The notes: generated by a model from the letters alone, not told the origin. DNA of 56,189 nucleotides from an uncultured Dehalococcoidia bacterium (GCA_903929005.1 CAIYTC010000177.1:1-56189), one strand, 5' to 3'. Positions 19,534-50,679 are shown, counted from the first letter of the stretch. Translations and numbers: made by a program.

Positions 19534-19603
19534 TTTCTGCCTCCTGAATAGCTATTTTATTTGCGCAGGCGGGTTTAAAAACCCGCTCCTGAAGCATTTA
19601 TTG

Positions 19604-19750
19604 TGTTGCGAGGAGCATCCCAAAAATGTCTTTGCGAGAAGCCCGCAGGCGACGAAGCAATCTCAGGGCATAGCGCTACTAACAGGCAGATTGCCGCGGC
19701 CGCTACGGCGGCCTCGCAATGACAGACGTTAGAGTAAGCCTCGCATGACA
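19604..19750. repeat. GTCATTGCGAG-family palindromic element, copy 2 (nested arms)
   Basis: Core 19628-19723 GTCTTTGCGAG...GAAGCAATC...GATTGCCGCGGCC...CCTCGCAATGAC, flanked by outer TTGCGAGG / CCTCGCATGACA arms. Confidence 0.85.
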
Positions 19751-19763
19751 TATAAGGCCCCCC

Positions 19764-21422: not shown

Positions 21423-21475
21423 TTGACAGCCTCCTCAAAAATTATTTTATTATGCTCAGCTTATCACTTTAGCCT

Positions 21476-21516
21476 GAGATTGCTTCGTCACTTCGTTCCT
21501 CGCAAAGACATTTTTG
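21476..21516. repeat. GTCATTGCGAG-family element, half copy 3
   Basis: Reverse complement reads CAAAAATGTCTTTGCGAGGAACGAAGTGACGAAGCAATCTC, matching the left arm of copy 2. Confidence 0.8.
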
Positions 21517-21613
21517 TTTTTGCCATTGCGAACGTTTTGGGCAGTTCAGGAAGAGCGCCGCCACGCGGTCCCCTCTCTTAACACCCGTATCAGCCAATTT
21601 AATAACCTTTTAG

Positions 21614-21643
21614 CTGCCCCCGGCGGGTACCCGCCGGGGGCAG
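21614..21643. terminator. GC-rich perfect 30-bp palindrome (terminator or mRNA-stabilising hairpin)
   Basis: CTGCCCCCGGCGGGT/ACCCGCCGGGGGCAG just downstream of a minus-strand ligase gene. Confidence 0.6.
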
Positions 21644-21689
21644 AAAATAAACTTTTATGTCCCTGCAGTGTATCTACTTCACCAAATTA

Positions 21690-23381: not shown

Positions 23382-23432
23382 GTAATAACCTCCCTGCAAA
23401 TTTTTATTTTCGATTGATTTGTTTATACCCTG

Positions 23433-23460
23433 CTGCCCCCGGCGGCCCGGCCGGGGGCAG
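23433..23460. terminator. GC-rich hairpin homologous to the one at 21614
   Basis: CTGCCCCCGGC-N6-GCCGGGGGCAG. Confidence 0.55.
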
Positions 23461-23490
23461 GTTATTCTGCGCTAATTTTAAACCATCAGC

Positions 23491-25182: not shown

Positions 25183-25245
25183 GTTAGAACCTCCTAAAGA
25201 TTTGATTTTATCATTAAGCGTAAAACGCCTGATTACCTCCGTTGA

Positions 25246-26949: not shown

Positions 26950-26952
26950 TAT

Positions 26953-30025: not shown

Positions 30026-30982
30026 CTAATACCCGTCAGTTGCATTCAATCCTTTGGCTTTGAATATATCAATTATCCCGCACATGCGCTCGCTGGTGAG
30101 CGGTGTGCGGCCGTTCAGTTGGTAGGCCCGGCCCAGCGACTGGTACTTGGCCCGGCCCCACTCATGATAGCCCAGCAGCGACATTTTCTCGGCCTTCATG
30201 CCCTGCAGCTTGCCGGCCAGCGCCTGCATATATTTATCGCTGTCGTTGTAACCGGGGATGACTGGCAACCTGATCCAAATGCGGGATTTATTGGCATTCA
30301 TGGCCTTCTCCAAATTAGAGAGGATAAGCTTGTTGTCCACACCTGTACCATCGCGGTGCTCCTCAGCGTCGACATGCTTGACATCAAAAAGCACCAGGTC
30401 GGTATATTCCAGCGCTTTCTCCAATATCTCCCAGGGTACATGTCCGCAAGTATCCAGGGCAGTGTTGAAACCGCGCTCTTTAAGACAGGTGAGCAACTCC
30501 AGGGCGAAACCGGCCTGAAGCAAAGGTTCACCGCCCGACAGGGTGACGCCTCCTCCCGAGTTGCGGTAGAAAAGCTCATCTTTTGAGCACTCTTCGACCA
30601 CCTCCCCAACGCTCATCTGCCTGCCGGCCAGCTCAAGGGCGTCTTCCCAGCAGACTTCCATGCATTTCAGGCAGAGGTCGCATTTATCCCTGTCCAACCG
30701 CAGGCCGCTGGCAGCCAGCGAGAGCGCGCCAGGTGCACAGACCGTAATGCAGCGCCCGCAGCCGTTGCAGCGGGCCTCCCTGACCATTAACTCGGCAGCC
30801 GGACTGAGCGATTCAGGGTTGGAGCACCACTTGCAGCGCAGGGGGCAACCCTTGAAAAAGACCGTGCTCCTGATGCCCGGACCGTCATGTATGCTGTAGC
30901 GCTGGATGTTGAAGACCAGGCCTTTAGTGTCCGTACCGCCCTTGTACGCGCTTCCGGCAGGCTCCCGTGAATCTAAAAGCAC
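30026..30982 (-). CDS. Glycyl-radical enzyme activating enzyme (radical SAM with ferredoxin-like insertion)
   Basis: HDGPGIRSTVFFKGCPLRCKWCSNPE, two extra CxxCxxCxxxC motifs, GGVTLSGGEP; overlaps the GRE stop. Confidence 0.93.
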   Translation of the reverse strand: MLLDSREPAGSAYKGGTDTKGLVFNIQRYSIHDGPGIRSTVFFKGCPLRCKWCSNPESLSPAAELMVREARCNGCGRCITVCAPGALSLAASGLRLDRDKCDLCLKCMEVCWEDALELAGRQMSVGEVVEECSKDELFYRNSGGGVTLSGGEPLLQAGFALELLTCLKERGFNTALDTCGHVPWEILEKALEYTDLVLFDVKHVDAEEHRDGTGVDNKLILSNLEKAMNANKSRIWIRLPVIPGYNDSDKYMQALAGKLQGMKAEKMSLLGYHEWGRAKYQSLGRAYQLNGRTPLTSERMCGIIDIFKAKGLNATDGY

Positions 30983-33407: not shown

Positions 33408-36053
33408 TCACACCCTGATGGTCAGGTCATCCAGCGGGTAACTCATGCAGGGATGGATATAGCCGAATTTTTTATCCGCCTGGCGGTGGTGCACCCGGGC
33501 CGGGGTAAAGACCTTGCCCGATATCAGCCTGGTACGGCAGGCCGTGCATTCACCCGACCGGCATACCACTGGAACCACGATGCCGGCTCGCTCAAGGGAA
33601 TTCATCAGCGGCTCGCCGGCCTTCGCTTTGACCTTCCTGCCGCTCCTCACTTCCGTAATAACAAACTCCTTAGCGGCCACAACGCCGGGCCAGGCCGGGT
33701 CCCTGGTTACATCCTGTGGCGGGCCGTAGGCCTCCCGCTTGCTGCGCCTGGCCGGCACGCCCAGTTTGACCAGCGCCGCTCCGCAGAGCTTATACATCAG
33801 GGCCGGGCCGCAGGTAAACACGGTCTTGCCCTTGAGATCACCCGCCAGCGACAAGATGACTTTGTCATCCAGGAAGCCGGTTGCCCCCTTCCAGCCGGAC
33901 GGCGGTTTGCTTATCACGTAATCAACCTTAATATTCTTGTGCTTGGATGCAATACCCTTAAGCTCTTTGTCAAAGATTATGTCATCGGGTTTGCGGCTGC
34001 CATAGATGAAGTGGATATTCAAAGCGGATTTCTTCTCCACGGCCTCCCTTATGATAGACATGAAGGGCGCGGCGCCGCTGCCGCCGGCCAGGAAGACGAG
34101 GTCGAAGGAATCCATCAGCGGCTCGTAGTAGAAATAACCATTGGGGCCGGTCGATTCAAAGCCGTCACCGGCTTTGACTTTATCCAGCAGGTAGGATGAC
34201 ACGAAGCCACCCTCTACCCTGCGCACGGTGATATCATAATAAGGTTGTCCGGGCGCGGATGAGATGCTGTAGGGCCGTGAGGTCTTCACTCCGCCTATCT
34301 CTACGAAAAGGTTGATGTATTGCCCGGCGCGAAAGAGCGGGAGTGTGCCATCCTTCGATTCCAGCCGGAAGGTTTTGGCAGTGTCCGTCTCTTTTATGAT
34401 CTCTTTAACTTTCAGCTTCAGCCGGCGCGGGTGGATGCCGGCTACCGCCTTCTCTTGCAGGGAGACAGTGTCCTTCAATTCTTTTGGCTGCACCTTCTGC
34501 TTCTCAAGATCGCTCTCCATCCTGGCCAGCTCGCCGGACTCCCAGGCGCCCTTCTCCATGTCGCGCAGTACTTCACGTGAAGCCATGGCACCCGAGGCGA
34601 TGCAGGGCTCGAACCCGCCGCCGATATTGACCCAGGCATTGGCGAAGTAAAGGCCTTCCAGCGGGCCCCTCATGGGCATATGCAGGAAGCCGCTGCCGGT
34701 GAAGTTCTCATCAAACCCGATAATGCTGCCGCGCGGGTTTCCCGTGTAGCGCATGTTGGTCAGCGGCGTGGCCACCTCAATCACCTCGATGTGGTCCCTC
34801 AGGTTAGGAGCGGCCTTCTCGGCCAGCGTGAGCGCCTTCTGGGCCACCCTGTTCTTGGCCTCAACATATTCCGAGGGTGAGAGCTTCAGCCAGGGGTCGG
34901 CATAGGCTATTTGAGTAATAACCACCGAGGCCGTCCCCCCGGGCGACACGGTCGGGTCGACCACGTTGTAGGCCACGACCGCGCTCCCGTCCGGGTCATT
35001 ATCGAGCGAGTTGAGCATGTTCTCATACTGCCTGTCAAGGTCGTAGGTCCTGTTAACAAAATTTTCGTGTACGTTCAGCCCGACCTCCTGGCAGGAGCAG
35101 TCCAGGCCCAGGTAGATGTTGACAGTGCTGGCGCCGCCGGTCCAGCCGCCGATGCGGTTGAGGTACCAGCCGGGCATATTGTCGCGCCCTATCAGATCGA
35201 GGGCGGTGGTCACCGGGTTGGCGCTGCAGACCACGTGCTGCGTGGCTATCTCCGTGCCGTCCTCGGTCAGCACGCCGCGTACCCTCCCGTCTTTTACTAA
35301 TATTCTCTTCGCGCCGTTATTGAACCAGGCCTCGCCACCGTAGGATTCCATGGTATCGATAAAGGCCTGAGACAGGCTCTGTGATGTCCCCCTGACATGG
35401 GCCGGCCCGAACCTGATGTAGCTGACCAGTGTGATAGCGTAAATGAGGAAGGCGACCCTGGAAGGAGGCTGGCACATATAGCCCCAGAGCTGGCCTATGA
35501 CGGCGCGTGCTTTCTCATCCGAGACCATGGGGTTAAGGACCTCGGAGAGCGACTTGCCGAAATTGCCGGCAAGTTCCGGGTATTCGGAGGGGTTCTGCAT
35601 AACGGCCTTCATGCCCACCCGCCGGGCTTTCATGTACTGACGGGCAAATTCGAAAATGGTGTGCGTGAATTTCTTTATGCCCTCAGCCTCCCTCGGGAAC
35701 AGGCTGCAAAGGGCGTCCTCGTAGTTCTGCCTGCCAATAGGCACCTCGATGGTGAAGTCAGGGAAGATGCTGCGGTAGAAGTCCGGGATGTGCAGGATTT
35801 CCACCCTGTCCGAGACACCGCTGTCATGCAGTATCTTCCAGATAGGGCCCTTGTCTGTCTCAGTCCCGTACCCGGAGAGCTGGTGCAGGGCTATCTCGAA
35901 CTCGAAACGGCCCCTCAGAAACGAGGTGGCATAGCCGCCCGGCACGTTATGCTTCTCCAGGATAACCACCTTCTTGCCGGCTTTGGCCAGGTAGGTTGCT
36001 GCTGATAATCCACCCAACCCCGCCCCTACGACGACGGCATCAAAGTCCTTCAT
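33408..36053 (-). CDS. Phytoene desaturase-family FAD oxidoreductase fused to FNR-type reductase and 2Fe-2S ferredoxin
   Basis: VVVGAGLGG/EKHNVPGG, ATPLTNMRY; RPYSISS, GGSG, TCGP; CRSGECTAC...C. Confidence 0.87.
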   Translation of the reverse strand: MKDFDAVVVGAGLGGLSAATYLAKAGKKVVILEKHNVPGGYATSFLRGRFEFEIALHQLSGYGTETDKGPIWKILHDSGVSDRVEILHIPDFYRSIFPDFTIEVPIGRQNYEDALCSLFPREAEGIKKFTHTIFEFARQYMKARRVGMKAVMQNPSEYPELAGNFGKSLSEVLNPMVSDEKARAVIGQLWGYMCQPPSRVAFLIYAITLVSYIRFGPAHVRGTSQSLSQAFIDTMESYGGEAWFNNGAKRILVKDGRVRGVLTEDGTEIATQHVVCSANPVTTALDLIGRDNMPGWYLNRIGGWTGGASTVNIYLGLDCSCQEVGLNVHENFVNRTYDLDRQYENMLNSLDNDPDGSAVVAYNVVDPTVSPGGTASVVITQIAYADPWLKLSPSEYVEAKNRVAQKALTLAEKAAPNLRDHIEVIEVATPLTNMRYTGNPRGSIIGFDENFTGSGFLHMPMRGPLEGLYFANAWVNIGGGFEPCIASGAMASREVLRDMEKGAWESGELARMESDLEKQKVQPKELKDTVSLQEKAVAGIHPRRLKLKVKEIIKETDTAKTFRLESKDGTLPLFRAGQYINLFVEIGGVKTSRPYSISSAPGQPYYDITVRRVEGGFVSSYLLDKVKAGDGFESTGPNGYFYYEPLMDSFDLVFLAGGSGAAPFMSIIREAVEKKSALNIHFIYGSRKPDDIIFDKELKGIASKHKNIKVDYVISKPPSGWKGATGFLDDKVILSLAGDLKGKTVFTCGPALMYKLCGAALVKLGVPARRSKREAYGPPQDVTRDPAWPGVVAAKEFVITEVRSGRKVKAKAGEPLMNSLERAGIVVPVVCRSGECTACRTRLISGKVFTPARVHHRQADKKFGYIHPCMSYPLDDLTIRV

Positions 36054-38287: not shown

Positions 38288-39985
38288 TTATTTTGGCTTG
38301 GCCATCAGTGTCCTGATCTCGCGTTTAAGTATCTTACCCACTGCGCTGGTAGGAAGCTGGTCATAGAATTCGATGCGCTTGGGTACCTTATAAGGCGCAA
38401 CCCTGCCTCGCAGGTATTCGGTGATCTTCGTTTTCTCAGCATCGCTCTTTTCAATGCCCGCCTTCAAGACGATGGCCGATGCCACAATCTCCGAACCGGG
38501 CCTTTCCGGATCAGGTATCCCCACGCTGGCCCCTAAATCCACGTCCGGGTGTTCGCAAATAACATCGTCAAGTTCACGCGTAAACACTTTCATCCCTGAG
38601 ACATTGACCATGTCCTTGATGCGGTCCACAATGGTCACGAAACCCTCTTCATCCATCTTACCCACATCGCCCGTGTGGAACCAGCCGTTCCGCAGCACGT
38701 GGGCCGTCTCATCCGGTTTCCTGAAGTATCCCTTGGTAAATACCTGCGGACCCTTTACAGCAATCTCGCCCGGCTCGTTGAAGGGAACCGATTCGCCGGT
38801 TGCCGGGTCGACGATTTTAATCACGGTATCGGGGAAGGGTAAGCCCACTGCGCCCGCTATCTTCTTACCGTAGCGCGGATTGGCCGTTATGAGTGGGCTG
38901 GTCTCGGTCAGGCCGTACACTTCCACCAGTTTACTCTCACCCACAATCTTCTCAAACTCCTTGATATATTCCGGGGGGAACGGGGCGGCGCCGCTGACAA
39001 AAAATTGGACGTCGCTGAAATCATATGCTTTGAAATCCGGTTTCTTCATCAACTCCAGGAAGATCGTGGGTACGTTGCCGATGATATTCGGCCTGTGCTT
39101 CTTCATGGCCTTGATGATAAATTTCTGGTCGCGCGGGTTGGGTACCGCGACCTGAGTAATGGCCTTGGAGAACATCGTCATGCATATTATCAGGCCGGCT
39201 ATATGGAAGAGCGGGAAGCAGGTCATGCCGACCGTCTCACCCATCTTAGTATCCACCCAGGTCGAGATTTGGGTCATCTGCCACACGATGTTGCGGTGTG
39301 TAAGCTCGGCGCCCTTGGGCAGGCCGGTGGTGCCGCCCGTGTATTGCATCACGCAGGTATCATCCATGCTGACTTTCTCCGCCACCGGGTCGGCCGGCAT
39401 GCTCTTCATGACCTGCTTGAAATCATATATCTCGATGCCGGGGATGGGCAGCACCTTGCCCGTGGGTATCTTTTTCAGCAGTTTCCCCATCGTGGCCAGC
39501 ACCGGGGAGAGGTAATCGGCAATGCCGGTGAACACGATAGCCTTTAGTTGCGTGCCGTCGATGCCCTTGATGACCCGCGGGTAAAGCGCATCAAGGGTCA
39601 CCAGTACTTTGGTGCCGGAATCCTTAAGCTGGTGGTTGAGTTCTTCCGCTGTCAGCAGCGGACTTACGCCAGTAATCACACAGCCTGCCTTCTGTATGCC
39701 CACCAGTCCGATGTAATAGGCCGGGATATTGGGAAGGTTTATACCGACGGTATCGCCCTTCTTTACCCCGATCTTCTTGAGCAGGTTGGCGAAACGGTTG
39801 GACATTTCGTCAATCTGCTTGTACGTAAAGGGCGTGCCCATGTAGTGCAGTCCAACACGGTCGGGAAATGCCTTGAAGGCCGGCTCTATAGCCTCCCAGA
39901 ACGTTTTATCCGGGTATTGCAGGGTTGCCGGGACATGCTTGTCGTAGAACTTGAGCCAGGGTTTTTGTTCGTATATGTCAACCAT
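38288..39985 (-). CDS. Acyl-CoA ligase (AMP-binding protein)
   Basis: YTGGTTGLPKG, YGLTE, TGDVG, PTSAVGK. Confidence 0.92.
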   Translation of the reverse strand: MVDIYEQKPWLKFYDKHVPATLQYPDKTFWEAIEPAFKAFPDRVGLHYMGTPFTYKQIDEMSNRFANLLKKIGVKKGDTVGINLPNIPAYYIGLVGIQKAGCVITGVSPLLTAEELNHQLKDSGTKVLVTLDALYPRVIKGIDGTQLKAIVFTGIADYLSPVLATMGKLLKKIPTGKVLPIPGIEIYDFKQVMKSMPADPVAEKVSMDDTCVMQYTGGTTGLPKGAELTHRNIVWQMTQISTWVDTKMGETVGMTCFPLFHIAGLIICMTMFSKAITQVAVPNPRDQKFIIKAMKKHRPNIIGNVPTIFLELMKKPDFKAYDFSDVQFFVSGAAPFPPEYIKEFEKIVGESKLVEVYGLTETSPLITANPRYGKKIAGAVGLPFPDTVIKIVDPATGESVPFNEPGEIAVKGPQVFTKGYFRKPDETAHVLRNGWFHTGDVGKMDEEGFVTIVDRIKDMVNVSGMKVFTRELDDVICEHPDVDLGASVGIPDPERPGSEIVASAIVLKAGIEKSDAEKTKITEYLRGRVAPYKVPKRIEFYDQLPTSAVGKILKREIRTLMAKPK

Positions 39986-40020
39986 TGTAAAGCCTCCTCC
40001 TATTTTTTACCTTAAAATAT

Positions 40021-41718
40021 TTATTTTGGCTTCGCTAGCAGTGTTCTAAGCTCACGTTTAAGTATCTTACCCACTGCGCTGATAGGGAGCTGGTCATAGA
40101 ATTCAATGCGCCTGGGTACCTTGTAAGGCGCCACCCTGCCGCGCAGGTATTCGGTGATCTTCGTTTTCTCAGCATCGCTCTTTTCAACACCTGCCTTCAA
40201 TACGATGGCTGATACCACTATCTCCGAACCGGGCCTGTCCGGATCCGCTAACCCCACGGTGGCCCCCATATCCACATCCGGGTGTTCGCAAATAACATCG
40301 TCAAGTTCACGCGTAAACACTTTCATCCCTGAGACATTCACCATGTCTTTGAGCCTGTCAACTATAGTCAGGAAGCCATCCTCGTCCATCTTGCCAACAT
40401 CACCGGTATGGAACCAGCCGTCCCGCAATACGTTGGCGGTCTCCTGCGGCTTCTTGAAGTACCCTTTGGTAAATACCTGGGGTCCCTTTACAACCACTTC
40501 ACCGGGTTCATTGAAGGGCACAGGTTCACCGGTAGACGGATCGACGATCTTTATAATGGTATCAGGCAAGGGTATGCCCACCGCACCCGCTATCTTTTTG
40601 CCGTAGCGGGGACTGGCCGTTATGAGTGGGCTGGTCTCTGTCAGGCCGTATACTTCCACCAGCTTGTTATCACCTACTATCTTCTCAAACTCCTTGATAT
40701 ATTCCGGCGGGAACGGCGCGGCGCCGCTGGCAAAAAATTGGACATCGCTGAAATCATAGGCTTTGAAGTCCGGCTGCTTCATCAGCTCCAAGAACACTGT
40801 CGGCACATTGCCTATCATGATCGGCCTATGTTTCTTCATAGCCTTGATGATGAATTTCTGGTCGCGCGGGTTAGGTACTGCAATCTGTGTGATAGCCCTG
40901 CAACATAACGCTATGGCAACTATCAGTCCTGCTATATGAAACAGCGGGAAGGCTGTCAAGCCGACCCCTACGCCCATTTTGAAATCCAGCCAGGTCGTCA
41001 TCTGGGTCAATTGGTCAACGATGTTGCGGTGTGTAAGCTCGGCGCCCTTGGGCAGGCCGGTGGTACCGCCGGTATACTGCATGACGCAGGTATCATCCAT
41101 GCTGACCTTTTCTGAGACTGGATCCGCGGGCATGGTCTTCATAACCTGCTTGAAATGGTATATTTCAATACCGGGGAGCGGAAGGACTTTGCCCGTAGGT
41201 ATCTTCTTCAGCAGTTTCCCCATGGTTGCCAGGACCGGTGACAGGTAATCGGCGATACCCGTAAATACAATAGCCTTGAGTGCTGTACCTGCTACTGACT
41301 TCTCGATGCGCGGGTAAAGCGCGTCAAGTGATACCAGCACCTTGGCGCCGGAATCCTTAAGCTGGTGGTTGAGTTCTTCCGCTGTTAAAAGCGGGCTGAC
41401 ACCGGATAAAACGCAGCCGATCTTTTGTATACCAAGCAAGGATATATAGTAAGCAGGCAGGTTAGGAAGGTTAACGCCCACGATATCGCCTTTCTTAAGG
41501 CCTACCTTCTTCAGGAGATGGGCAAACCTGGTCGACATGATATCTAATTGCTTGAAAGTGAAGGGTGTTCCCATGTAGTAGAGCCCCACTTTATCCGGGA
41601 ACTCTGCAAAGGCGGGACCAACTACCTCCCAAAACGGTTTCTCCGGGTACTTCAGGTTTGCCGGGACTTGCTTGTCGTAGAACTTGAGCCAGGGTTTCTG
41701 TCCATAGATGTCTGTCAT
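40021..41718 (-). CDS. Acyl-CoA ligase (close tandem paralog of 38288..39985)
   Basis: Same length (565 aa), long identical stretches; YTGGTTGLPKG, PISAVGK. Confidence 0.92.
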   Translation of the reverse strand: MTDIYGQKPWLKFYDKQVPANLKYPEKPFWEVVGPAFAEFPDKVGLYYMGTPFTFKQLDIMSTRFAHLLKKVGLKKGDIVGVNLPNLPAYYISLLGIQKIGCVLSGVSPLLTAEELNHQLKDSGAKVLVSLDALYPRIEKSVAGTALKAIVFTGIADYLSPVLATMGKLLKKIPTGKVLPLPGIEIYHFKQVMKTMPADPVSEKVSMDDTCVMQYTGGTTGLPKGAELTHRNIVDQLTQMTTWLDFKMGVGVGLTAFPLFHIAGLIVAIALCCRAITQIAVPNPRDQKFIIKAMKKHRPIMIGNVPTVFLELMKQPDFKAYDFSDVQFFASGAAPFPPEYIKEFEKIVGDNKLVEVYGLTETSPLITASPRYGKKIAGAVGIPLPDTIIKIVDPSTGEPVPFNEPGEVVVKGPQVFTKGYFKKPQETANVLRDGWFHTGDVGKMDEDGFLTIVDRLKDMVNVSGMKVFTRELDDVICEHPDVDMGATVGLADPDRPGSEIVVSAIVLKAGVEKSDAEKTKITEYLRGRVAPYKVPRRIEFYDQLPISAVGKILKRELRTLLAKPK

Positions 41719-41851: not shown

Positions 41852-42679
41852 CTAACCCTTCACCGCGCTGACCTTGATGCTGCGTACTGCCTTACCAAGC
41901 TTCTTAAGGTCATCGCGGGACACTTTCTCGTCCTTGAGTATGGCCTGCGCCGTGGGGTCGTTGGACATGTAGTCCGTGCCGAAGCCGGATTCGTCGATTA
42001 CCTTCACATCCTTGAAGCCGGCCTGCTTAATTGCGTCCAGGTACTGCTCCTTGAGGGCGGCGCCGGCCAGGCAGCCGATATAGGCGGCTACCGATTTCTG
42101 CACCGTGCCCGGCAGCGCCTCAAGCAGGACGATGTCGGATACCATCAGCCGTCCGCCCGGCTTTAAAACACGGTAAGCCTCGCGGAAGACCTGCTCCTTA
42201 TCCGGCGAAAGGTTTATCACGCAGTTGGAGATGATGATGTCGACCTGGTTATCGCCGACAGGCAGGTTCTCGATCTCGCCCAGCCTGAATTCAACGTTAG
42301 CATAGCCGCCTTGGGCGGCGTTCTCCCTGGCCTTCTCCAGCATCTCGGGCGTCATATCCACGCCGATGACCCTGCCTTTCTTCCCCACACGGGATGAAGC
42401 CAAGAAGCAGTCGAAGCCGGCGCCCGAACCCAGGTCGAGCACCACTTCGCCCTCTTTGAGCGAGGCCAGCGCCACCGGGTTGCCGCAGCCCAGGCCAAGG
42501 TTAGCCCCGTCGGGCACCGAGTTCATCTCCTCTTCGCTGTAGCCGATGCCTTTGCTGATCTCCTTGGTCACGTCAATGCCGCAGCAGCCTGTTTGCTGAG
42601 GCCCGCAGCATGAGCCGCCGCCTTTGGCCACCCTGGCATAGCCCAGCCTGACGACTGTTTTGATCTCTTCTTTTTTCAT
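41852..42679 (-). CDS. arsM: Arsenite methyltransferase
   Basis: [35 protein letters not shown]; N-terminal CC pairs. Confidence 0.93.
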
Positions 42680-43764
42680 TATTTTCCTCCTGTTGATTTT
42701 ACCGTTGCATGGTCAAAGAATTTTCGTTTGAAGTACAGCGACACGTTTACCAGGCTGATGAGCACCGGCACCTCCACCATGGGTCCGATCACGGCAGCAA
42801 AAGCCTGCCCCGAATTAATGCCGAAAACAGCTACAGCCACGGCTATAGCCAGCTCAAAGTTGTTGCTGGCAGCGGTGAATGCTATAGTGGCCGTCCTGGG
42901 ATAATCGGCCCCTATCTTCTTGCCCATATAGAAAGAGACCAGGAACATGACCACGAAGTAGATGAGCAGCGGAAGGGCGATGCGCAGCACATCCAGTGGA
43001 AGCTGCACGATGATCTGGCCTTTGAGCGAGAACATAACAACGATGGTAAAAAGCAGGGCGGCCAGGGTGATAGGGCTTATTTTGGGGATGAATTTGCCGT
43101 CGTACCAATCAAGCCCCCTGGCCCTGACCAGCAGGAACCTGGTGAACATGCCGGCAAAAAAAGGTATGCCCAGGTAAATGAGCACGCTCTGCGCTATCTG
43201 CCAGATAGTGATATCCACAGCCAGCCCCTTAAGGCCGAAAAGGCCGGGCAGCACGGTGATAAATACATAGGCATAAACGGAGTAGAAAAGTATCTGGAAG
43301 ATGGAATTGAAGGCCACCAACCCCGCGGCATACTCGGTATCGCCTTTGGCCAATTCATTCCAGACTATGACCATGGCGATGCAACGTGCCAGTCCCATCA
43401 TGATAAGACCCACCATGTAGTCGGGATAGGCCTGCAGGAAGATGATGGCCAGCAGGAACATCAAAATAGGCCCGATCAGCCAGTTCTGCAGCAAAGAAAT
43501 GCCCAGCACCCTCCAGTTGCGGAAGACCAGCGGCAATTCCTCGTACTTAACCTTGGCCAGCGGCGGGTACATCATCAATATCAGGCCGGCAGCGATGGGA
43601 ATGGATGTAGTATCCACCTGGAAGAGGCTGATGAAATCCGCCACGCGCGGGACGAAATATCCCAGGCCGACACCCAGCCCCATGGCCAGGAAAATCCACA
43701 GTGTGAGAAACCTGTCGAGGACAGGTAATTTGCCATTTGGCTCTTGAGATAGGCTATTAGTCAA
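42679..43764 (-). CDS. acr3: ACR3 family arsenite efflux transporter
   Basis: [38 protein letters not shown]; TTG start 43764 after AAGGAGG. Confidence 0.94.
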
Positions 43765-43825
43765 CCAAGCCTCCTTTATTGACGCTGCAAACAAATATAA
43801 TTCTCTTCACTTCAGGCATACCCTA

Positions 43826-44533
43826 TTAATACAACTTCAGCCGCAGTCCCACGTAATAAAACCCGATGACAATGAACGATACCGCCATGGCGATCCTGAC
43901 ATATTTCTCGGCTTTGCTGATCGAATTAATCCATCTGGCAGCCCCCGCCACTCCCAATGAGAGAAGCGAGCCAAAAAGCAACACCGGCAGGCCCGTCCCC
44001 AGCGCAAATAAAGCTGTCAAGCCTACGCCGCCATGTGTATTGAATGCCATCGGTATCAGCACCATGAAAAATAACAGCGCGCTATAGGGGCAGAAGGCCA
44101 GCGCCAGCACAATGCCCAGAGGCAGGGCGCCCAGCATGCCCATATCGGCCAGTTTAGCAGCGGCATTGGCCATCGCACTGCCGTGCTCACCGAAAGATAT
44201 GCGGTCGATAAAAAGCATTATCAGTCCAACGATGATCAGCAAAGGGCCGATCACCACCTCAGCGAATTCCTGCAGGAAATTAGCCACCGCCGGGATGCTC
44301 ATGCCCGCGTAGATGATCAGCATGCCCAGAACGGTATAGGTTATCATCCTGCCCAGCGTATAGAGAGCGCCGCCGGTTACGGCAAATTTACGGTCGGATA
44401 TCCTGCGGCTGATGTAGGCCACGGCTGCCAGGTTAGTTGCCAGCGTACAGGGTCCCAGCGAGGCCATGACACCCAGCATAAAGGCCGATACACCCGGCAG
44501 GTTGAGGCTGTTGGCCAGGTTTTGTATATCCAT
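43826..44533 (-). CDS. ArsG-family / CcdA(DsbD)-like membrane protein
   Basis: GPCTLATN and AFCPYS Cys motifs, YTLGR, about 6 TMs. Confidence 0.82.
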   Translation of the reverse strand: MDIQNLANSLNLPGVSAFMLGVMASLGPCTLATNLAAVAYISRRISDRKFAVTGGALYTLGRMITYTVLGMLIIYAGMSIPAVANFLQEFAEVVIGPLLIIVGLIMLFIDRISFGEHGSAMANAAAKLADMGMLGALPLGIVLALAFCPYSALLFFMVLIPMAFNTHGGVGLTALFALGTGLPVLLFGSLLSLGVAGAARWINSISKAEKYVRIAMAVSFIVIGFYYVGLRLKLY

Positions 44534-44552: not shown

Positions 44553-44900
44553 TCAAGTCGTACAGGCAACGTTTTGTTTCACAGTTTTCTGCAATTTTTT
44601 TCTGTCTAACCTGGCTTCCGGCGTCTCCTCTATAGCCAACCTGACCCCCTTAATTATCTCCTGGGCATAGGCCGGCATGCCTTCGTGGTCAAGAGCGTAG
44701 TTCATCCAGATACCCTGCTTTTTGGCCTTCAGCAGCCCGGCATCATGCAATATGGAAAGGTGCCGCGATGCGCTGGGTTGGGATATGCCCAGCACCTGCA
44801 TTACCTCGCAAACACAGCATTCCCTTTCCAACAGGATATTCAGTATCCTCAACCGGGTACCATCTGAAAGCGCTTTAAACAATCTTACTGTTTCACTCAT
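44553..44900 (-). CDS. arsR: ArsR/SmtB family metalloregulator
   Basis: FKALSDGTRLRIL, ECCVCE, SQPSASRHL. Confidence 0.9.
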   Translation of the reverse strand: MSETVRLFKALSDGTRLRILNILLERECCVCEVMQVLGISQPSASRHLSILHDAGLLKAKKQGIWMNYALDHEGMPAYAQEIIKGVRLAIEETPEARLDRKKLQKTVKQNVACTT

Positions 44901-44956: not shown

Positions 44957-45003
44957 TTGACAAACAAATGCCACCGCAGTAACATATCAACATATGTTTA
45001 TAT
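44957..45003 (+). promoter_or_regulatory. arsP promoter with ArsR/SmtB-type operator
   Basis: TTGACA-17 nt-TAACAT; 20-bp near-perfect palindrome ATATCAACAT/ATGTTTATAT at 44984-45003. Confidence 0.65.
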
Positions 45004-45021
45004 ATTACTATAATTATTCTA

Positions 45022-46128
45022 ATGGTGCAAATCGTGGCCGCGAAAACTAAGGAAACCTCGTGCCATTATGATCCCACCTTCCCTGAACACTCGGGCAAGG
45101 AAAAGGGTAACCGACAATGGAAGCTCACGCTTCCTCTGGGTGCAGGCCTGGCTATCTGGGTACTGCTATACTGTTGGGTGGAACCCGCTGCCAATATCTT
45201 AACCTATTCAGTATTTCAACTCCCATCTGACAGCCGACTCGGCAGCAGCGTTGCTTTTTTCCTCTACGAGGCGCCCAAGGTTATTCTACTACTAACCGCT
45301 ATCGTCTTCGGCGTCGGCATCCTGCGTTCGTTCTTCACCCCGGAAAGCACACGACAAATGCTGGCGGGCAAACGGGAATATGTAGGCAACGTGTTAGCGG
45401 GGGGACTCGGCATCGTCACTCCTTTTTGCTCATGTTCGGCCGTGCCCCTTTTCATCGGTTTCGTCGAGACCGGGGTCCCGCTCGGGGTAACGTTTACCTT
45501 CCTCATTGCTGCCCCTATGATTAACGAGGTAGCCGTCGTCCTCCTCTTCAGCATGTTCGGCTGGAAGATAGCGCTGCTCTATGTGACAACAGGACTGTTC
45601 ATCGCCATCACCGCAGGCTGGGTGATCGGCAGGCTGAAGCTGGAAAGATACATCGAAAGCTGGGTCTTCGATATCCAGATGGGCGGCTCGCCGGAAACCG
45701 CACAGCACATTACATTTGAAGACCGGTTACAGTACGGCCTAAACGCAGTACGCGAGATAGTCGGCAAGGTCTGGCCCTACGTGCTGGCCGGGATAGCAGT
45801 GGGAGCGGTTATACACGGGTATGTACCCGAAGGCCTGATGGCTTCATTTATGGGTAAAGACGTCTGGTGGGCCGTGCCCGCGGCCGTTCTTCTTGGCATC
45901 CCCATGTATTCCAATGCGGCGGGGGTAATACCGATAATGCAAGCGCTCATGGAGAAGGGCGCAGCCCTGGGCACAACGCTGGCCTTTATGATGGCGGTCA
46001 TAGGCCTGTCCCTGCCGGAAACTATAATACTGCGAAAAGTGCTGAAGTGGCAGCTCATCACCGTATTCATAGGGGTTGTGGCTGCCGGCATTACCATCAT
46101 AGGTTACCTTTTCAATATATTGCTTTGA
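45022..46128 (+). CDS. arsP: ArsP-type (DUF318) permease
   Basis: TPFCSCSAVP, APMINE, GIPMYSNAAG, LSLPE motifs. Confidence 0.85.
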   Translation: MVQIVAAKTKETSCHYDPTFPEHSGKEKGNRQWKLTLPLGAGLAIWVLLYCWVEPAANILTYSVFQLPSDSRLGSSVAFFLYEAPKVILLLTAIVFGVGILRSFFTPESTRQMLAGKREYVGNVLAGGLGIVTPFCSCSAVPLFIGFVETGVPLGVTFTFLIAAPMINEVAVVLLFSMFGWKIALLYVTTGLFIAITAGWVIGRLKLERYIESWVFDIQMGGSPETAQHITFEDRLQYGLNAVREIVGKVWPYVLAGIAVGAVIHGYVPEGLMASFMGKDVWWAVPAAVLLGIPMYSNAAGVIPIMQALMEKGAALGTTLAFMMAVIGLSLPETIILRKVLKWQLITVFIGVVAAGITIIGYLFNILL

Positions 46129-46157: not shown

Positions 46158-46409
46158 ATGGATATCAAAGTACTGGGCCCCGGCTGTGCCAAATGCCAGA
46201 GCCTGGAAAAAACGGTTAAAGAAGTTGTGGCCGCCCTCAAGCTCGATATCAAAGTCGAAGAGATAAAGGACATGAAGAAGATCATGCAGTACCCCATCCT
46301 GATGACGCCCGGCCTGGTAATCAACGAGAAAGTCGTTATGAGCGGCAAGGTCCCGTCCAAAGCTGAAGTCGAGCGTTTAATAATGAATGCTCTTGATGCC
46401 GAAGCCTGA
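46158..46409 (+). CDS. Small thioredoxin-family protein (MTH895/ArsE-like)
   Basis: MDIKVLGPGCAKC...TPGLVIN; AAAGGAG RBS; true start lies inside the longer ORF-track call. Confidence 0.9.
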   Translation: MDIKVLGPGCAKCQSLEKTVKEVVAALKLDIKVEEIKDMKKIMQYPILMTPGLVINEKVVMSGKVPSKAEVERLIMNALDAEA

Positions 46410-46534
46410 CGGACAAAACAGGTTATTACTTAGCCTTCACACAAAATTCACATTCATAATTTATACTGATATGGCACGTTATGAAGTAAGGCAAAATCAG
46501 GCAATTATCTCAACAAGGAGGAACATAATCTCAG

Positions 46535-47119
46535 ATGGTAAACTCATTTAAGAGCTTAATCCCGCCGTTATTGCTGGCAGGAATTATCCTTCTGGCCGGC
46601 TGTTCAGGTTCGCCTTCAAACCCCGCCCCGCCGCCAGTTCAAACACCGGTCCAGGCGGCTAACCAGCCTGCTGTGCAACAGCCTGCCCAATCTCCGTCCG
46701 GGCAAAATCCGGCGTCAGGAGCGGGCACTGCGGATAACGTTACTACCGTTGCCGGGCAGCCGCAATCCCCTCAGCCCAATCGTGTAGATGTCATTTATTT
46801 TCACGTGAACCAGCGCTGTGTGACCTGTCTGTGTTTCGAAGAACGTGTCAACCATGTTATCGAAGCGTACTTTGGCGATGATATAAACAACGGCAGGTTG
46901 ACCTACAGGGTGTTGAACGCACAGCAGCAGCAGAATGCCGGCATCGCCAAAACGTACGGCGTTGTAGGCTCACAGTTGTTTATAAACACAGTCGTCAACG
47001 GTAAAGACAGTATCAAAGATATCCAGGATATCTGGAAATGGAATTGCAGGTATAACGCGCCAAGCTTTGACCTTAAAGTGAGGAGTGTCATCGACTACAG
47101 CCTGAAAGGGCTCAAGTAA
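46535..47119 (+). CDS. ArsF-like thioredoxin-fold lipoprotein
   Basis: Lipobox LAGC, Pro/Gln-rich tether, VIYFHVNQRCVTC motif. Confidence 0.8.
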   Translation: MVNSFKSLIPPLLLAGIILLAGCSGSPSNPAPPPVQTPVQAANQPAVQQPAQSPSGQNPASGAGTADNVTTVAGQPQSPQPNRVDVIYFHVNQRCVTCLCFEERVNHVIEAYFGDDINNGRLTYRVLNAQQQQNAGIAKTYGVVGSQLFINTVVNGKDSIKDIQDIWKWNCRYNAPSFDLKVRSVIDYSLKGLK

Positions 47120-47838
47120 TGGATCTCTCAGCTTTATCGGCAAGTACGGGCATACCTGCCCTGTCGGCCTTTTTTCTCGGGTTAATGGCCACCATCGGGC
47201 CCTGTACCATGGCTACCAATATAGCCGCCCTGGCCTACGTGGGGCGCAACCTGACGAACCGCAAATACTCTGTAGTGACGGCGGCACTATACACGCTGGG
47301 AAGGATGCTGACCTATACAGTACTGGGCGCCCTGATTATTTACCTCGGACTGGGTATCCCCGGTGTTTCCTTATTTCTGCAGGATATCGGTGAAAAGGCC
47401 CTCGGACCGTTCCTGATCGTAATAGGATTGCTGATGCTTTTCATTGATAAAATCTCTTTCGGCGGCGCCGGCAACAGCCTGTCCAATATCGGTGGGAAGG
47501 TGGCAGACTGGGGCATGATCGGGGGACTTCCCCTGGGCGCGCTCTTTGCCTTGGCCTTCTGCCCCTACAGCGCAGTGCTGTTTTTTGCTGTTTTGCTGCC
47601 GTTAGCGTTAAAATCTGCAGGCGGCATTACCCTGCCGGCCTTTTTTGCTATAGGCACGGGCTTGCCGGTTTTGCTTTTCGGAATACTGCTCTCATTTGGG
47701 GTGGCCGGCATCTCAAAGTGGGTGGAGGCAATTTCGCGCAGCGAAAAGGTAATACGTATTGTGATCGCCGTTATATTCATTGGCATAGGGATTTACTATA
47801 TGCTGCCCTGGCTGGGAACGTTATTCACAGCTAACTAA
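47119..47838 (+). CDS. ArsG-family / CcdA-like membrane protein (second copy)
   Basis: GPCTMATN and AFCPYS; coupled to the upstream gene via TAATG. Confidence 0.82.
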   Translation: MDLSALSASTGIPALSAFFLGLMATIGPCTMATNIAALAYVGRNLTNRKYSVVTAALYTLGRMLTYTVLGALIIYLGLGIPGVSLFLQDIGEKALGPFLIVIGLLMLFIDKISFGGAGNSLSNIGGKVADWGMIGGLPLGALFALAFCPYSAVLFFAVLLPLALKSAGGITLPAFFAIGTGLPVLLFGILLSFGVAGISKWVEAISRSEKVIRIVIAVIFIGIGIYYMLPWLGTLFTAN

Positions 47839-47848
47839 TTCTCATGGG

Positions 47849-48571
47849 GTGAACATTATGCAACAATTTCATATTGCAGGAAGGGCAGCCCTGATATTAA
47901 TTGCACTTGTGCTTTCAGTACAGTTGTCCTGTTCTCCAACTGATAACATAGTTAATCATCAAAATCACGCGCCCGTTATTGAAAAAATCAATTATGATAA
48001 GACTACCTATCACAACAGAGCAGCTAAAATAGAATGCATTGCGACCGATATTGATAGCGACAACCTGACATATGCATGGGAAGCCAGGGATGGCAAAATT
48101 ACAGGCGAAGGCAAGAGCGTTTTATGGACGCCTCCCGGCAATATACAGAATTACCCGATAACGCTCACGGTTACTGATGGGAAAGGGGGAGAGTCAAAAA
48201 AGACTATATATATCCTGGTCGTTACCAATGCGGATGGCACCAATACAACAAATATTGAGTTGAATTTAAAATTAAGGGACAACACTACAGTGGTAATTGA
48301 CAATCAACGTGTTGGGATATGGAAAACAGCCAACCTCTTTTGTGTCGTAGAAAATGCCAAAGAAAGTGATCTTATATACAAATGGTCTGCGGACTGCGGG
48401 AGGATACAGGAGAACACGGGCCCGGCAAATAAGCTAAGTTGGATTGCCCCCGGCGCACAAAGCAATTGTACTGTCGCGGTCACGGCCACCGATACTGAAA
48501 CGGGCAGTGAGGCCAAAGGGCAGGTAAAATTTAATGTATTTTGTTGCGGCAAGGAATTAACTGGAGATTGA
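47849..48571 (+). CDS. Lipoprotein with two Ig-like (PKD-like) domains and C-terminal FCC
   Basis: Lipobox QLSC; NHAP..DIDSDNLTYAW..VTDGKGG; linker VVTNADGT; ends VFCCGKELTGD. Confidence 0.75.
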   Translation: MNIMQQFHIAGRAALILIALVLSVQLSCSPTDNIVNHQNHAPVIEKINYDKTTYHNRAAKIECIATDIDSDNLTYAWEARDGKITGEGKSVLWTPPGNIQNYPITLTVTDGKGGESKKTIYILVVTNADGTNTTNIELNLKLRDNTTVVIDNQRVGIWKTANLFCVVENAKESDLIYKWSADCGRIQENTGPANKLSWIAPGAQSNCTVAVTATDTETGSEAKGQVKFNVFCCGKELTGD

Positions 48572-48575
48572 AGAG

Positions 48576-49295
48576 ATGTATATTATGAAACCATCAAATT
48601 TTACAGGCTGGATATCCGCAGTGCTGCTTACAGTTATGCTTGCCCTGCAATTAGCCTGCGCGCCGCCAACGCCCGAGGTCAAGCAGCCAAACCAGGCGCC
48701 CGTGATTGAAAATATAAATTATGCCAGGGATGCCTTTGGCACGTCCGAGGTCCAGATTGAATGCCTGGCAAAGGATGCCGACAGTGATAACCTGACCTAT
48801 CAATGGGCAGCGGAAGCTGGTGAAATCAGGGGCAGGGGGGAGAGAATACTGTGGATGCCGCCCGGCAAGATGGGAACTTATCCCATTACGCTGGTGGTTA
48901 CTGATAGCAAAGGAGGCGTGGCCACGGAAAATATCAGCATCCGGGTTGTCACCAATGCGGACGGCACTGCCACGCCCCTGGTGGAGCTGAAGTTAAAGAT
49001 GGGAGATGCTGAGACACCCACAGTATATAAACAGCGTATCCGGTCCTGGTTTGAAATTGACATCCTCTGCATTGTGGAGGACGCCGGCAGCGCAGGTGAT
49101 TTGATGTATACGTGGTCCGCCACAGGCGGCGAGATGAAGGGCAAGGGTTTGGAAGAAGGCAAAGCGAATAGGATCAAGTGGAAGGCACCGGGTGTAAAAG
49201 GCGACTATACTGTAAGCATTACAGTTAAAGATAGCGCGGGCAAGGAGGCGGATGGCCAGGTCATTGTTACTGTTTTTTGCTGCGGCGACTCATAA
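48576..49295 (+). CDS. Lipoprotein with two Ig-like domains and C-terminal FCC
   Basis: Lipobox QLAC; NQAP..DADSDNLTYQW; VVTNADGT; ends VFCCGDS. Confidence 0.78.
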   Translation: MYIMKPSNFTGWISAVLLTVMLALQLACAPPTPEVKQPNQAPVIENINYARDAFGTSEVQIECLAKDADSDNLTYQWAAEAGEIRGRGERILWMPPGKMGTYPITLVVTDSKGGVATENISIRVVTNADGTATPLVELKLKMGDAETPTVYKQRIRSWFEIDILCIVEDAGSAGDLMYTWSATGGEMKGKGLEEGKANRIKWKAPGVKGDYTVSITVKDSAGKEADGQVIVTVFCCGDS

Positions 49296-49331
49296 GGATA
49301 TAAGCGCAGAATTAATCAAGGCAGGGATAAA

Positions 49332-50018
49332 TTGAGAATATGCATTTTCACCGTGGGTCTGTTAAGCGCACTGCTGATATCAGGATGTAGCATTATCAAT
49401 ATACCCAAACCAGCTCCCAATAATAACCCCCTGATCGAATCGGTTACCTGCACCAAAGATGTGTGGGCTTTAGCGGAAAATGAAATGGTCTGCCAGGCGA
49501 GTGACCCCGATGGCGACAGCCCCCAGTATGAATGGTCAACCGGTAGCGGGAAAATAATCGGGACGGGAGCAAGAATGATGTGGGTTTCACCGAATACCAT
49601 GGGTGATTACGACGTTACAGTAAGGGTATCCGATGGAAAAGGGGGAGAGGCGAAACAGACTGTCTCTATACGTGTGCTTACTAATGCTGACGGTACAACC
49701 GCGCAACCAATTACTCTGAAAATTTTCTTACCGTCTACCGAGATTGTATCCGAGAATAGGACTACCAAGGTCGGGACGGCGACAAAAATAACCTGCGCCG
49801 TTAATAATGCAGCAGGCAAGAAATTGAGCTATGCATGGACTGCCAGCGGAGGCAAACTAAAGGGCAAAGGCATAGATGATAAAACTTGTGCGGTTGTTTT
49901 CTGGACCGCACCCGCGCTTACACAGATATATACTGTGAACGTTGCTATCAGGGATGAGCAGGGCAATGAAGCGCGGGGGCAAGTGATTTTCGACGTGTTT
50001 TGCTGTCCGAGGAATTAG
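49332..50018 (+). CDS. Lipoprotein with two Ig-like domains and C-terminal FCC
   Basis: Lipobox ISGC; DPDGD..YEW..VSDGKGG; VLTNADGT; ends VFCCPRN. Confidence 0.78.
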   Translation: MRICIFTVGLLSALLISGCSIINIPKPAPNNNPLIESVTCTKDVWALAENEMVCQASDPDGDSPQYEWSTGSGKIIGTGARMMWVSPNTMGDYDVTVRVSDGKGGEAKQTVSIRVLTNADGTTAQPITLKIFLPSTEIVSENRTTKVGTATKITCAVNNAAGKKLSYAWTASGGKLKGKGIDDKTCAVVFWTAPALTQIYTVNVAIRDEQGNEARGQVIFDVFCCPRN

Positions 50019-50151: not shown

Positions 50152-50679
50152 CTATTGCCCCTTTCCTTCAAGGACCTGGCCCAGCTTGACCCTGATGAAG
50201 TCCACCAGCCTGTCCTTATTGGCGTCCCCGGTCATCTCCCAGATTGCGTCGACGGGATACAGTCGCTCGCTATCGCCGCGGACCTCCCTGATGAAAAGTG
50301 AAAAGACCATGGCATCGTATTTTTTCAGCAGAGCGGCATTGGCCGGGTCGTCGGAAACAATCATGGTCAGCGTAACACGCCCGCTGGCAACCTCTTCCTC
50401 GAAATAGGTATCAACAGCGTATTTGATGTTATCGCCCACCACAGCCATGCAAGGGCAGGGGTTCTTAGTATGGAAATAAATCAGCTCCACCCTGTCAGGC
50501 TTGAGCGGCTTTATCGACAGGGTAATCGAGGTGTTCTCCACCAGGATAACAGTGGTTCCATTTTCGGCGGCGGCGTTTCCCCTGCCCGCCGGTGCGGCCG
50601 CCGTCCCGCCGCAGGCCATTGCCGACACACTAAAAGCGAGACAGACTGCCCATAATGAAATTATAAAATCTCTCTTCAT
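50152..50679 (-). CDS. ArsF-like thioredoxin-fold lipoprotein with CxC variant motif
   Basis: Lipobox AMAC; DRVELIYFHTKNPCPCM, paralogous to NRVDVIYFHVNQRCVTC. Confidence 0.72.
   Translation of the reverse strand: MKRDFIISLWAVCLAFSVSAMACGGTAAAPAGRGNAAAENGTTVILVENTSITLSIKPLKPDRVELIYFHTKNPCPCMAVVGDNIKYAVDTYFEEEVASGRVTLTMIVSDDPANAALLKKYDAMVFSLFIREVRGDSERLYPVDAIWEMTGDANKDRLVDFIRVKLGQVLEGKGQ

Follow-up and report, generated by a model that had tools for sequence, protein, structure and literature searches.

Known Thiol-Based Systems and the Locus Studied

The ArsEFG module of Shewanella putrefaciens 200, reportedly described by Chen, Zhang and Rosen in 2019 in Environ Sci Technol 53:6182, has named roles in nitro-group reduction and in the efflux of aromatic aminoarsenicals. 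Its families recur in the DNA analyzed here, a contig of 56,189 nucleotides from an uncultured Dehalococcoidia bacterium (GCA_903929005.1 CAIYTC010000177.1:1-56189; contig C177, hereafter the window), which belongs to a 2.6-Mb genome (G000) that is 96.9% complete. An arsenic island occupies 41.8-50.7 kb of the window and has in common with the described module ArsE, ArsF1, both ArsG copies, and an ArsR-linked setting with an ArsP-type permease. The described module has no PKD or Cys-Cys (CC)-tailed lipoprotein, whereas in the window three genes for putative two-PKD lipoproteins ending in Phe-Cys-Cys (FCC1, FCC2, and FCC3) stand behind ArsG2; in addition, the ArsE, ArsG, and ArsF sequences look like a relay of thioredoxin, CcdA-type membrane protein, and thioredoxin-fold lipoprotein. 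What is new at this locus is an ars island that, besides an ArsEFG cysteine relay, has taken up one branch of a CC-tailed surface lipoprotein family specific to the lineage. To our knowledge, all ars resistance components described so far are either cytoplasmic or membrane pumps. The initial annotation of the window, made from the sequence alone, likewise knew of no ars component of this kind, and the literature searched, the coverage of which mostly stopped short of subscription journals, mentioned neither PKD lipoproteins encoded in ars operons nor extracytoplasmic Cys-pair ars proteins.

The closest analogue of the FCC proteins, apparently by function and not by descent, is SaoC. In the part of the account by Haft and Gwadz (10.1101/2022.07.06.499078) that concerns it, SaoC is an exported protein, mostly a lipoprotein, with a hallmark C-terminal CC, and it is encoded beside the ArsP-family permease SaoE and the thioredoxin-like SaoT. 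It has a mean length of 158 amino acids (aa), lacks PKD domains, and ends exactly at CC or sometimes at Cys-selenocysteine (Sec). The SAO system is presented there as a nine-gene neighborhood (SaoA, B, P, X, L, etc.) with an ATP-binding cassette (ABC) importer and a MerB-like enzyme, found in other taxa, and contact with heavy metals or metalloids was proposed from the recurring CC theme (10.1101/2022.07.06.499078). The FCC proteins depart from SaoC in all three respects compared, namely homology, an exact CC-COOH end, and neighborhood. At E<=0.01, none of the NCBIfam Sao models gave a match to the FCC proteins; 3-12 residues lie beyond the CC pair across the FCC family, and a search for selenocysteine variants of the tail (CU/UC) returned off-frame chance matches only. 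No ABC transporter or MerB-like gene was found at the FCC locus, where the ArsP and ArsE neighbors are weak matches to SaoE and SaoT, below the cut-offs.

The CcdA-ResA/CcsX and DsbD-DsbC/E/G systems share with this locus a cytoplasmic thioredoxin, a pseudo-symmetric membrane protein with two Cys, an exported thioredoxin-fold protein, and a Cys-bearing client that needs reduction. However, the client here would be neither apocytochrome c nor a disulfide isomerase, the context is arsenic resistance, and ArsF carries CxC or CxxCxC in place of a plain CxxC. MerP, MerT, the MerA C-terminus, ArsD, and the Cys pairs of ArsR also have vicinal or close Cys on flexible ends or loops that bind and pass on a soft ion, but their folds differ, and all except MerP are cytoplasmic or membrane proteins.

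FCC Proteins and Their Cys-Cys Tail

FCC2 and FCC3 are 46 and 34% identical to FCC1, respectively. All three share C28 at the end of the signal peptide, C63, a TNADGT linker, C165, and a V-F-C-C motif, followed by 7, 3, and 3 residues in FCC1, FCC2, and FCC3. The linker between the two PKD/Ig domains reads V(V/L)TNADGT, and C63 and C165 occupy the same strand-B position, one in each PKD domain. The models PKD_4, Big_9, and PKD exceeded their Pfam gathering scores among FCC1-3, which were found to belong to the families tested (PF18911, PF00801, PF17963, and PF22352). FCC1 scored 35.9 with PKD_4 (gathering score 27) and 33.2 with Big_9 (23.6), FCC2 scored 42.4 with K319L-like_PKD (27; two stretches) and 43 with Big_9 (23.6), and FCC3 scored 41.5 with Big_9 (23.6) and 38.6 with PKD (23.5). 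An AlphaFold2 model of FCC2 (80 sequences) shows two beta-sandwich domains at a mean predicted local distance difference test (pLDDT) value of 89.7, with the CC pair directly past the last strand, where the mean pLDDT drops to 78. Open reading frames (ORFs), alignment, Pfam matches, and model all agree with the initial annotation, which had described three tandem paralogs with two Ig-like domains, a shared linker, one Cys per domain, and a VFCC tail. None of the ArsE, ArsF, and ArsG families of NCBIfam includes the FCC proteins. A Foldseek search of the PDB with the FCC2 model gave generic tandem Ig, cadherin, and titin matches only, at template-modeling (TM) scores of ~0.3 and with no functional lead, the best match being the B12-binding lipoprotein 7biz; a protein-atlas search gave generic PKD clusters only.

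The Cys behind the hydrophobic helix is invariant in 80/80 aligned family sequences, including all three FCC proteins. A canonical lipobox (I-S-G-C) is present in FCC3 only, while FCC1 (Q-L-S-C) and FCC2 (Q-L-A-C) deviate from the textbook form, so that the lipobox first ascribed to all three holds for its Cys and not for its full motif. LspA was detected above its cut-off in the genome, and Lgt was found as two pieces at contig ends, each under the cut-off. The distance of 10 nt between ArsG2 and FCC1 that had been given at the outset is correct for a GTG start at 47849; the ATG at 47858, which is preceded by GGGGTG and at which the database copy P0094 begins, is the likelier start.

The CC pair is located at most 10 residues from the end in 100/103 database homologs, 98 of which have [FY]CC; the three homologs that lack the tail comprise one N-terminal fragment and two 300-aa proteins. 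The tail exceeds what chance would give: CC occurs in the last 12 residues of 14/2205 genome ORFs (>=90 aa), and seven of these 14 belong to this one PKD family. A profile search of protein representatives returned mostly giant multi-PKD proteins among its best 150 matches. Within these 150, none of the 126 proteins of at least 520 aa had a CC tail, whereas FCC was present in all eight single-stretch proteins of 230-247 aa, which ties the tail to the two-domain architecture.

When 80 sequences, distant subfamilies among them, are aligned, no Cys is invariant except that of the lipobox and the CC pair, and C63 and C165 are conserved in at least 90%. That the latter two are intrinsic to the fold was considered and rejected: Cys occupies this position in 43/448 repeats of unrelated multi-PKD proteins, which usually have S, A, T, or V at the strand-B position, vs. 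90/92 in the FCC family. All five Cys are retained in 25/25 ars-linked CC-tailed rows (subfamily A). On the other hand, 6/17 rows of a second subfamily (type B, described below) have lost the domain-2 Cys and kept CC; across the family the CC pair is therefore independent of C165, and the three-thiol site of CC plus domain-2 Cys that had been suggested for the FCC proteins is weakened. The pattern of conservation points to the CC pair as the functional core of the family.

Linkage of FCC Genes to ars Genes

Linkage was examined in 78 genome and 79 metagenome loci that were fetched through two conserved family peptides, a sample that is biased to close relatives. Beyond the window, 14/15 genome loci of the FCC1/2/3 clades adjoin ArsG and/or ArsE/ArsF (the exception is L014), with the FCC gene either right behind ArsG or behind ArsE with ArsF2 converging. 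An FCC2-like gene (>=49% identity) was present in 29 metagenome loci, four of which have <100 bp upstream; ArsG or ArsE was located directly upstream in 23 of the 25 assessable loci (exceptions, L103 and L113), although some metagenome contigs probably represent the same populations as genome loci. The linkage to ars/arsFG genes that the initial annotation had proposed to check was thus borne out for close orthologs but not for the sister subfamilies, which reside at two kinds of non-ars locus. In a divergent lineage (L146 and L143; 31% identity, tail VSCCK) the order is ArsP, PKD-CC, ArsE, ArsF, ArsG. The ars association therefore outlasts changes in gene order, since these two loci keep the gene set in a rearranged form.

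In six larger islands (L012, L017-L021), FCC genes are interleaved with additional exported thiol machinery. These islands encode exported lipoprotein thioredoxins, fusions in which a single FCC-type PKD domain is joined to a thioredoxin, and a 575-aa fusion of MauE, FN3, and ResA/MauD-like domains that follows the FCC3-type gene in L018, L020, and L021. A further CcdA and proteins with DGC and FmdE domains are present, and ArsD and ArsA come after them. Cys-rich tails are also found there on other exported proteins: two of unrelated type, namely a membrane-anchored protein of ~190 aa with no family match (tail ...C.PG.SGCC[PGC]K) and a CARDB-like lipoprotein (...SCCGG...C), and a distant PKD protein (...[GA]CCGGN..CG).

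Arsenic Island and the Putative ArsE/ArsG/ArsF Relay

The ArsEFG module is present in the island, as ArsE, ArsF1, and both ArsG copies exceed their curated NCBIfam cut-offs and the ArsE, ArsF1, and ArsG2 genes are adjacent (Table 1). ArsP, ArsE, ArsF1, ArsG2, and FCC1-3 are encoded on the plus strand and diverge from ArsR. The two ArsG paralogs share 59% identity (tblastn), the start of ArsG2 overlaps the stop of ArsF1, and the position of ArsF2 is conserved in L010, L011, and L013. No genomic copies of ArsE, ArsF, ArsG, ArsP, or Acr3 were detected outside the island (tblastn, whole genome). The G+C content of the FCC stretch is 0.49, compared with 0.53-0.63 in the flanks. No ArsC was found in the 96.9%-complete genome, with 0 matches to TIGR02691 (thioredoxin- and glutaredoxin-coupled types were sought) and 0 to PF03960; the same genome nevertheless has ArsM, Acr3, ArsR, and two ArsG copies.

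Table 1. Features of the arsenic island in the window and of related loci elsewhere
Feature	Position	Strand	Identification and remarks
ArsM, arsenite methyltransferase	41852..42679	-	NF008823, 355 bits (cut-off 263); divergent ars operon
Acr3, arsenite efflux transporter	42679..43794	-	TIGR00832, 443.6 bits (cut-off 282.8)
ArsG paralog 1, DsbD_2/CcdA-like	43826..44533	-	NF040495, 242.5 (cut-off 200); Cys in GPC and FCPY motifs
ArsR repressor	44553..44900	-	NF033788 and HTH_5; C-C-V-C motif in DNA-binding region
Promoter-like hexamers and overlapping 32-bp palindrome (44978-45009)	44957..45014	+	Between ArsR and ArsP; consensus matches only
ArsP_1-family permease	45022..46128	+	PF03773, 238.6 bits; conserved C-S-C motif
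ArsE/MTH895-type small thioredoxin	46158..46409	+	TIGR00412, 101.2 (cut-off 62); PF13192; C-A-K-C, no signal peptide
ArsF1, lipoprotein	46535..47119	+	NF040494, 81 (cut-off 60); motif C-V-T-C-L-C; disordered linker and thioredoxin-fold domain (residues 83-191)
ArsG2, CcdA/DsbD_2-like membrane protein	47119..47838	+	NF040495, 251.1 (cut-off 200); PF13386; two invariant Cys
FCC1, predicted two-PKD lipoprotein, 240 aa	47849..48571	+	Tail ...VFCCGKELTGD
FCC2, predicted two-PKD lipoprotein, 239 aa	48576..49295	+	Tail ...VFCCGDS
FCC3, predicted two-PKD lipoprotein, 228 aa	49332..50018	+	Tail ...VFCCPRN; separate clade with FCCPR[NY] tail
ArsF2, second ArsF-like lipoprotein	50152..50679	-	NF040494, 58.9 bits, slightly below cut-off 60; C-P-C motif; convergent with FCC3
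MauE/DoxX-like and type-C pair	G000 C255:1746-3052; also L033, L035, L038		
PKD-thioredoxin fusion lipoproteins (one FCC-type PKD domain)	L019:6272-6976, L020:9104-9811, L021:9131-9838		Between FCC2-type and FCC3-type genes
Other exported Cys-rich-tail proteins of larger islands	L012:7489-9560, L017:11156-14617, L019:8951-9472, L023:1081-1800		Beside further CcdA, ArsD, ArsA

The Cys of the putative relay are strongly conserved. ArsE opens straight with the first strand and C-A-K-C, and its CxxC is kept in 8/8 orthologs; the protein is predicted to be cytoplasmic because it begins at this strand and has no signal peptide. ArsG has one Cys in transmembrane helix 1 (G-P-C) and one in transmembrane helix 4 (F-C-P-Y) in 15/15 sequences. 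One Cys in each half is the arrangement of the CcdA/DsbD electron transporters, and the DsbD-family membrane domain PF13386 was found in the two ArsG copies with scores of 69.6 and 73.5 (cut-off 24.9). The Cys motif of ArsF is retained in 16/16 sequences, as CxxCxC in the ArsF1 type and as CxC in other ArsF. In the AlphaFold2 model of ArsF1, the lipobox is followed by a long low-confidence linker and then by a domain at pLDDT 95-98 in which a first strand leads to the Cys motif at the start of helix 1, followed by strand, helix, two strands, and a last helix; its best Foldseek matches were thioredoxins (target-normalized TM 0.5-0.64). These properties agree with the initial description of a cytoplasmic CxxC thioredoxin, a CcdA/ArsG-like membrane protein, and a thiol lipoprotein. 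As an architecture predicted from sequences and models, the chain from thioredoxin to ArsG to ArsF is well founded, and electrons would flow through ArsE, ArsG, and ArsF. A complex prediction for the FCC2 ectodomain and the ArsF1 domain gave scores of 0.02 and 0.15, compared with a mark of 0.32, and is evidence neither for nor against their contact.

The gaps between genes from ArsG2 to FCC3 measure 4-36 nt, and no convincing terminator was found inside this stretch. The palindrome and hexamers between ArsR and ArsP form a candidate ArsR operator and promoter of an operon that extends from ArsP to FCC3. One ArsR-controlled transcript from ArsP to FCC3 is probable, as the gaps are tight, no convincing internal terminator was found, and a promoter-like site overlaps a palindrome. 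A search of sequencing runs listed DNA runs and no RNA run; four of these DNA runs, all from a single study, contain at least half of the words searched.

Wider CC-Tailed Family

The 53 rows used for a quick maximum-likelihood tree were limited to cluster members of 200-270 aa, so that 14/67 rows were left out. The tree splits the ars-linked clades (FCC1 plus FCC2, and FCC3) from two groups that each have their own conserved locus, and locus labels change four times on the tree, compared with a mean of 22.4 after shuffling. Type B is a gene pair (tails, for example, YCCHP or LCCRDP and FCCGN or ICCTTE), and it is flanked by a block of coenzyme A (CoA) ligase and rubrerythrin genes and by PAC2 and methylmalonyl-CoA-mutase-like genes. 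Type C is a single gene with the tails KCCGV and HCCN, and a CxC variant (VVTCRCSL) is present in 3/7 rows. In 4/8 loci, including C255, the gene just ahead of the type-C gene encodes a MauE/DoxX-like membrane protein of 177-181 aa in which a C-E-C motif is conserved; two further type-C loci have no upstream DNA. This neighbor and the MauE-FN3-ResA/MauD-like fusion of the larger islands form a second, independent tie of the family to a membrane thiol-redox protein. At L037 (3964-7123), the type-C gene, with a CxC tail, adjoins a divergent ArsR-ArsP-ArsE unit at the place where other genomes have the MauE-like gene.

Among 201 sampled genomes of the class, strong full-length matches (E<1e-50) were confined to six genomes of the taxonomic family of the window, and weaker two-domain matches were found in one genome of a sister family. 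The CC tail has a greater age and a wider distribution than the ars link. The genome of the window also contains a row of PKD-domain lipoproteins (C54:23684-27289), two of ~398 aa, two of 126-138 aa, and one 139-aa single-domain protein that ends in ...SKCCR; the CC tail thus occurs on a single-domain relative too.

Possible Function of FCC1-3

From the gene architecture, Cys conservation, folds, topology signals, and genomic linkage described above, we infer that FCC1-3 may serve as outer clients of the ArsE/G/F relay, with an exposed dithiol that would ligate trivalent arsenicals. This proposal is tentative, and we rate its probability slightly below even. A lipid anchor would hold FCC1-3 to the outside of the cytoplasmic membrane, and each would form a rigid two-PKD stalk with a vicinal Cys-Cys exposed at its C-terminus. 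They may be co-transcribed with the ArsP-type permease, ArsE, ArsG, and ArsF, probably under ArsR. The dithiol would ligate trivalent arsenicals outside the membrane, and the ArsE/G/F relay would keep or reset its thiols. According to the relevant part of PMC11868830, As(III) is bound by three Cys, two of which are often vicinal (AfArsR C95/C96/C102; CgArsR C15/C16/C55), whereas two Cys suffice for trivalent methylarsenic, MAs(III), an example being SpArsR with its selectivity for MAs(III). A two-coordinate trivalent organoarsenical fits the FCC proteins best, because the exposed Cys pair stands alone and the island contains ArsM and an ArsP-type permease. The most plausible ligands would thus be two-coordinate species such as methylarsenite that is made by ArsM and exported by the permease.

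Several observations weigh against arsenic binding by the FCC proteins. The linkage is strong, but the taxonomic range is narrow and the tail predates the ars link. All 6/6 searched genomes of the bacterial family carry a member of the lipoprotein family, just three of them next to ArsG; in 2/6 genomes ArsG is located elsewhere and does not adjoin a family member, and 1/6 has no ArsG. As adjacency holds in only 3/6 genomes, neither partner requires the other in general. No ars or relay gene was found in the fetched flanks of nine type-B loci or at C19/C258 of the same genome, and, except at L037, no ars gene was found in the fetched flanks of seven type-C loci or at C255. These distributions indicate that the CC-tailed two-PKD family as a whole is not arsenic-specific. 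Each subfamily has its own conserved residues behind CC (GN/GDS, PRN, GKELTGD), and these resemble a recognition motif more than a free arm for metal binding. Moreover, stoichiometric binding at the surface would be a weak route to resistance, and the published function of ArsEFG, as given by NCBIfam names and by a citing sentence in PMC9144182, is reduction of the nitro group of aromatic arsenicals and their efflux, with no such proteins involved. Overall, the interpretation of the initial annotation, a cell-surface system for the capture of arsenic or metals, is partly supported.

Alternatively, the CC-tailed PKD lipoproteins could be general envelope proteins of this lineage, an explanation that we regard as rather unlikely. 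The tail would then serve structure or maturation, as an intermolecular disulfide, an envelope attachment, or a motif that a modifying or docking enzyme recognizes, and the ars copies would be arsenic-induced spares or decoys that are repaired by the relay. Exposed dithiols are prime targets of arsenite, which would make sense of ars-linked copies as spares or decoys. The presence of the family in every searched genome, mainly at non-ars loci, favors a general role, as do the status of the tail as the most conserved feature over all subfamilies with subfamily-specific residues behind it, its replacement by CxC in some type-C rows, and the MauE/DoxX-like C-E-C protein ahead of half of the type-C genes. 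However, no candidate transferase or sortase-like gene adjoins any examined locus, and the tree shows that the ars-linked clades are old and distinct and not recent copies. Furthermore, unrelated proteins of the larger islands have also gained CC tails, which argues for metalloid chemistry over a maturation pathway specific to one family.

The FCC proteins could instead be catalytic ends of the relay that reduce pentavalent arsenicals or another oxidized group outside the cell and are recharged by ArsF/ArsG/ArsE, or arsenic could itself be handed from thiol to thiol, from ArsE to ArsG to ArsF to FCC, in an export bucket brigade; this is unlikely on present evidence. A dedicated electron relay suits turnover better than binding in a strict anaerobe, and the mer system works by vicinal Cys pairs (MerT and the C-terminus of MerA). 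Although ArsG has CcdA-type Cys, its name describes an efflux permease of trivalent aromatic arsenicals, and ligand exchange would reconcile the two. The failure to find ArsC of either type in the genome adds a small gain, but its absence would be expected anyway in permanently anoxic sediment. Extracellular reduction of As(V), on the other hand, gives the more toxic form, the FCC proteins lack a catalytic fold as well as a third nucleophile that is demonstrably close to CC, and the sister subfamilies lack an adjoining relay. Equally improbable in our estimate is an extracytoplasmic arsenic pathway in Dehalococcoidia of this family, in which reducing power or an arsenical would pass via ArsE, the ArsG Cys, and ArsF to the CC pair of FCC as the working site, which would reduce or capture arsenicals at the surface of organisms that have no ArsC.

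It is very unlikely that the linkage reflects the thiol relay and another soft metal, sulfur, or selenium species (Sb, Hg, Cd, Cu, or polysulfide) in place of arsenic, or that the FCC genes are passengers: the ArsP_1 permease scores on the SaoE and SO_0444 (Cu/Zn efflux) models, although weakly and below their cut-offs, ArsR/SmtB regulators sense many metals, and Cys pairs bind many thiophilic ions, but ArsM and Acr3 lie above curated cut-offs in the island, ArsD and ArsA occur in related islands, and tight spacing with an association conserved despite changes in gene order speaks against passengers.

If the FCC lipoproteins do contact arsenicals, the ars toolkit would gain an extracellular, thiol-based arm, and the widely annotated names of ArsE, ArsF, and ArsG (nitroreductase subunits and efflux permease) would need to be re-read as those of a relay with defined clients. 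The improbable extracytoplasmic pathway, if true, would be the first thioredoxin-driven, extracytoplasmic ars branch and would reassign ArsEFG to a general cysteine relay. If, instead, the tail is structural, the arsenic islands would have borrowed a lineage-specific envelope family. These organisms inhabit freshwater sediment that is anoxic, a setting in which methylarsenite may act as a microbial weapon, and a surface trap or processor of methylarsenite would have a bearing on arsenic cycling in sediments. The FCC ectodomain (~210 aa) is a small, easily expressed test object for the recurring C-terminal Cys-Cys theme that has been noted for SaoC.

Other Features of the Window

Eight paralogous AMP-binding genes of the acyl-CoA ligase type (484-569 aa) are encoded on the minus strand at 17845-28407 and 38288-41718, six of them in a single head-to-tail row and two just before the ars island; the gene at 26953-28407 lacks the C-terminal AMP-binding_C domain. 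A glycyl-radical enzyme (pyruvate formate-lyase-like, 798 aa) and its radical S-adenosylmethionine activase are located at 30026-33369 on the minus strand, and they are adjoined by an 881-aa protein in which flavin amine-oxidase-like, FAD/NAD-binding, and 2Fe-2S domains are fused (33408-36053). The region at 16067-17823 contains RhuM-family and pRiA4b ORF-3-like genes at a G+C content of 0.47, compared with 0.55-0.60 around it, and looks like a small mobile insertion.

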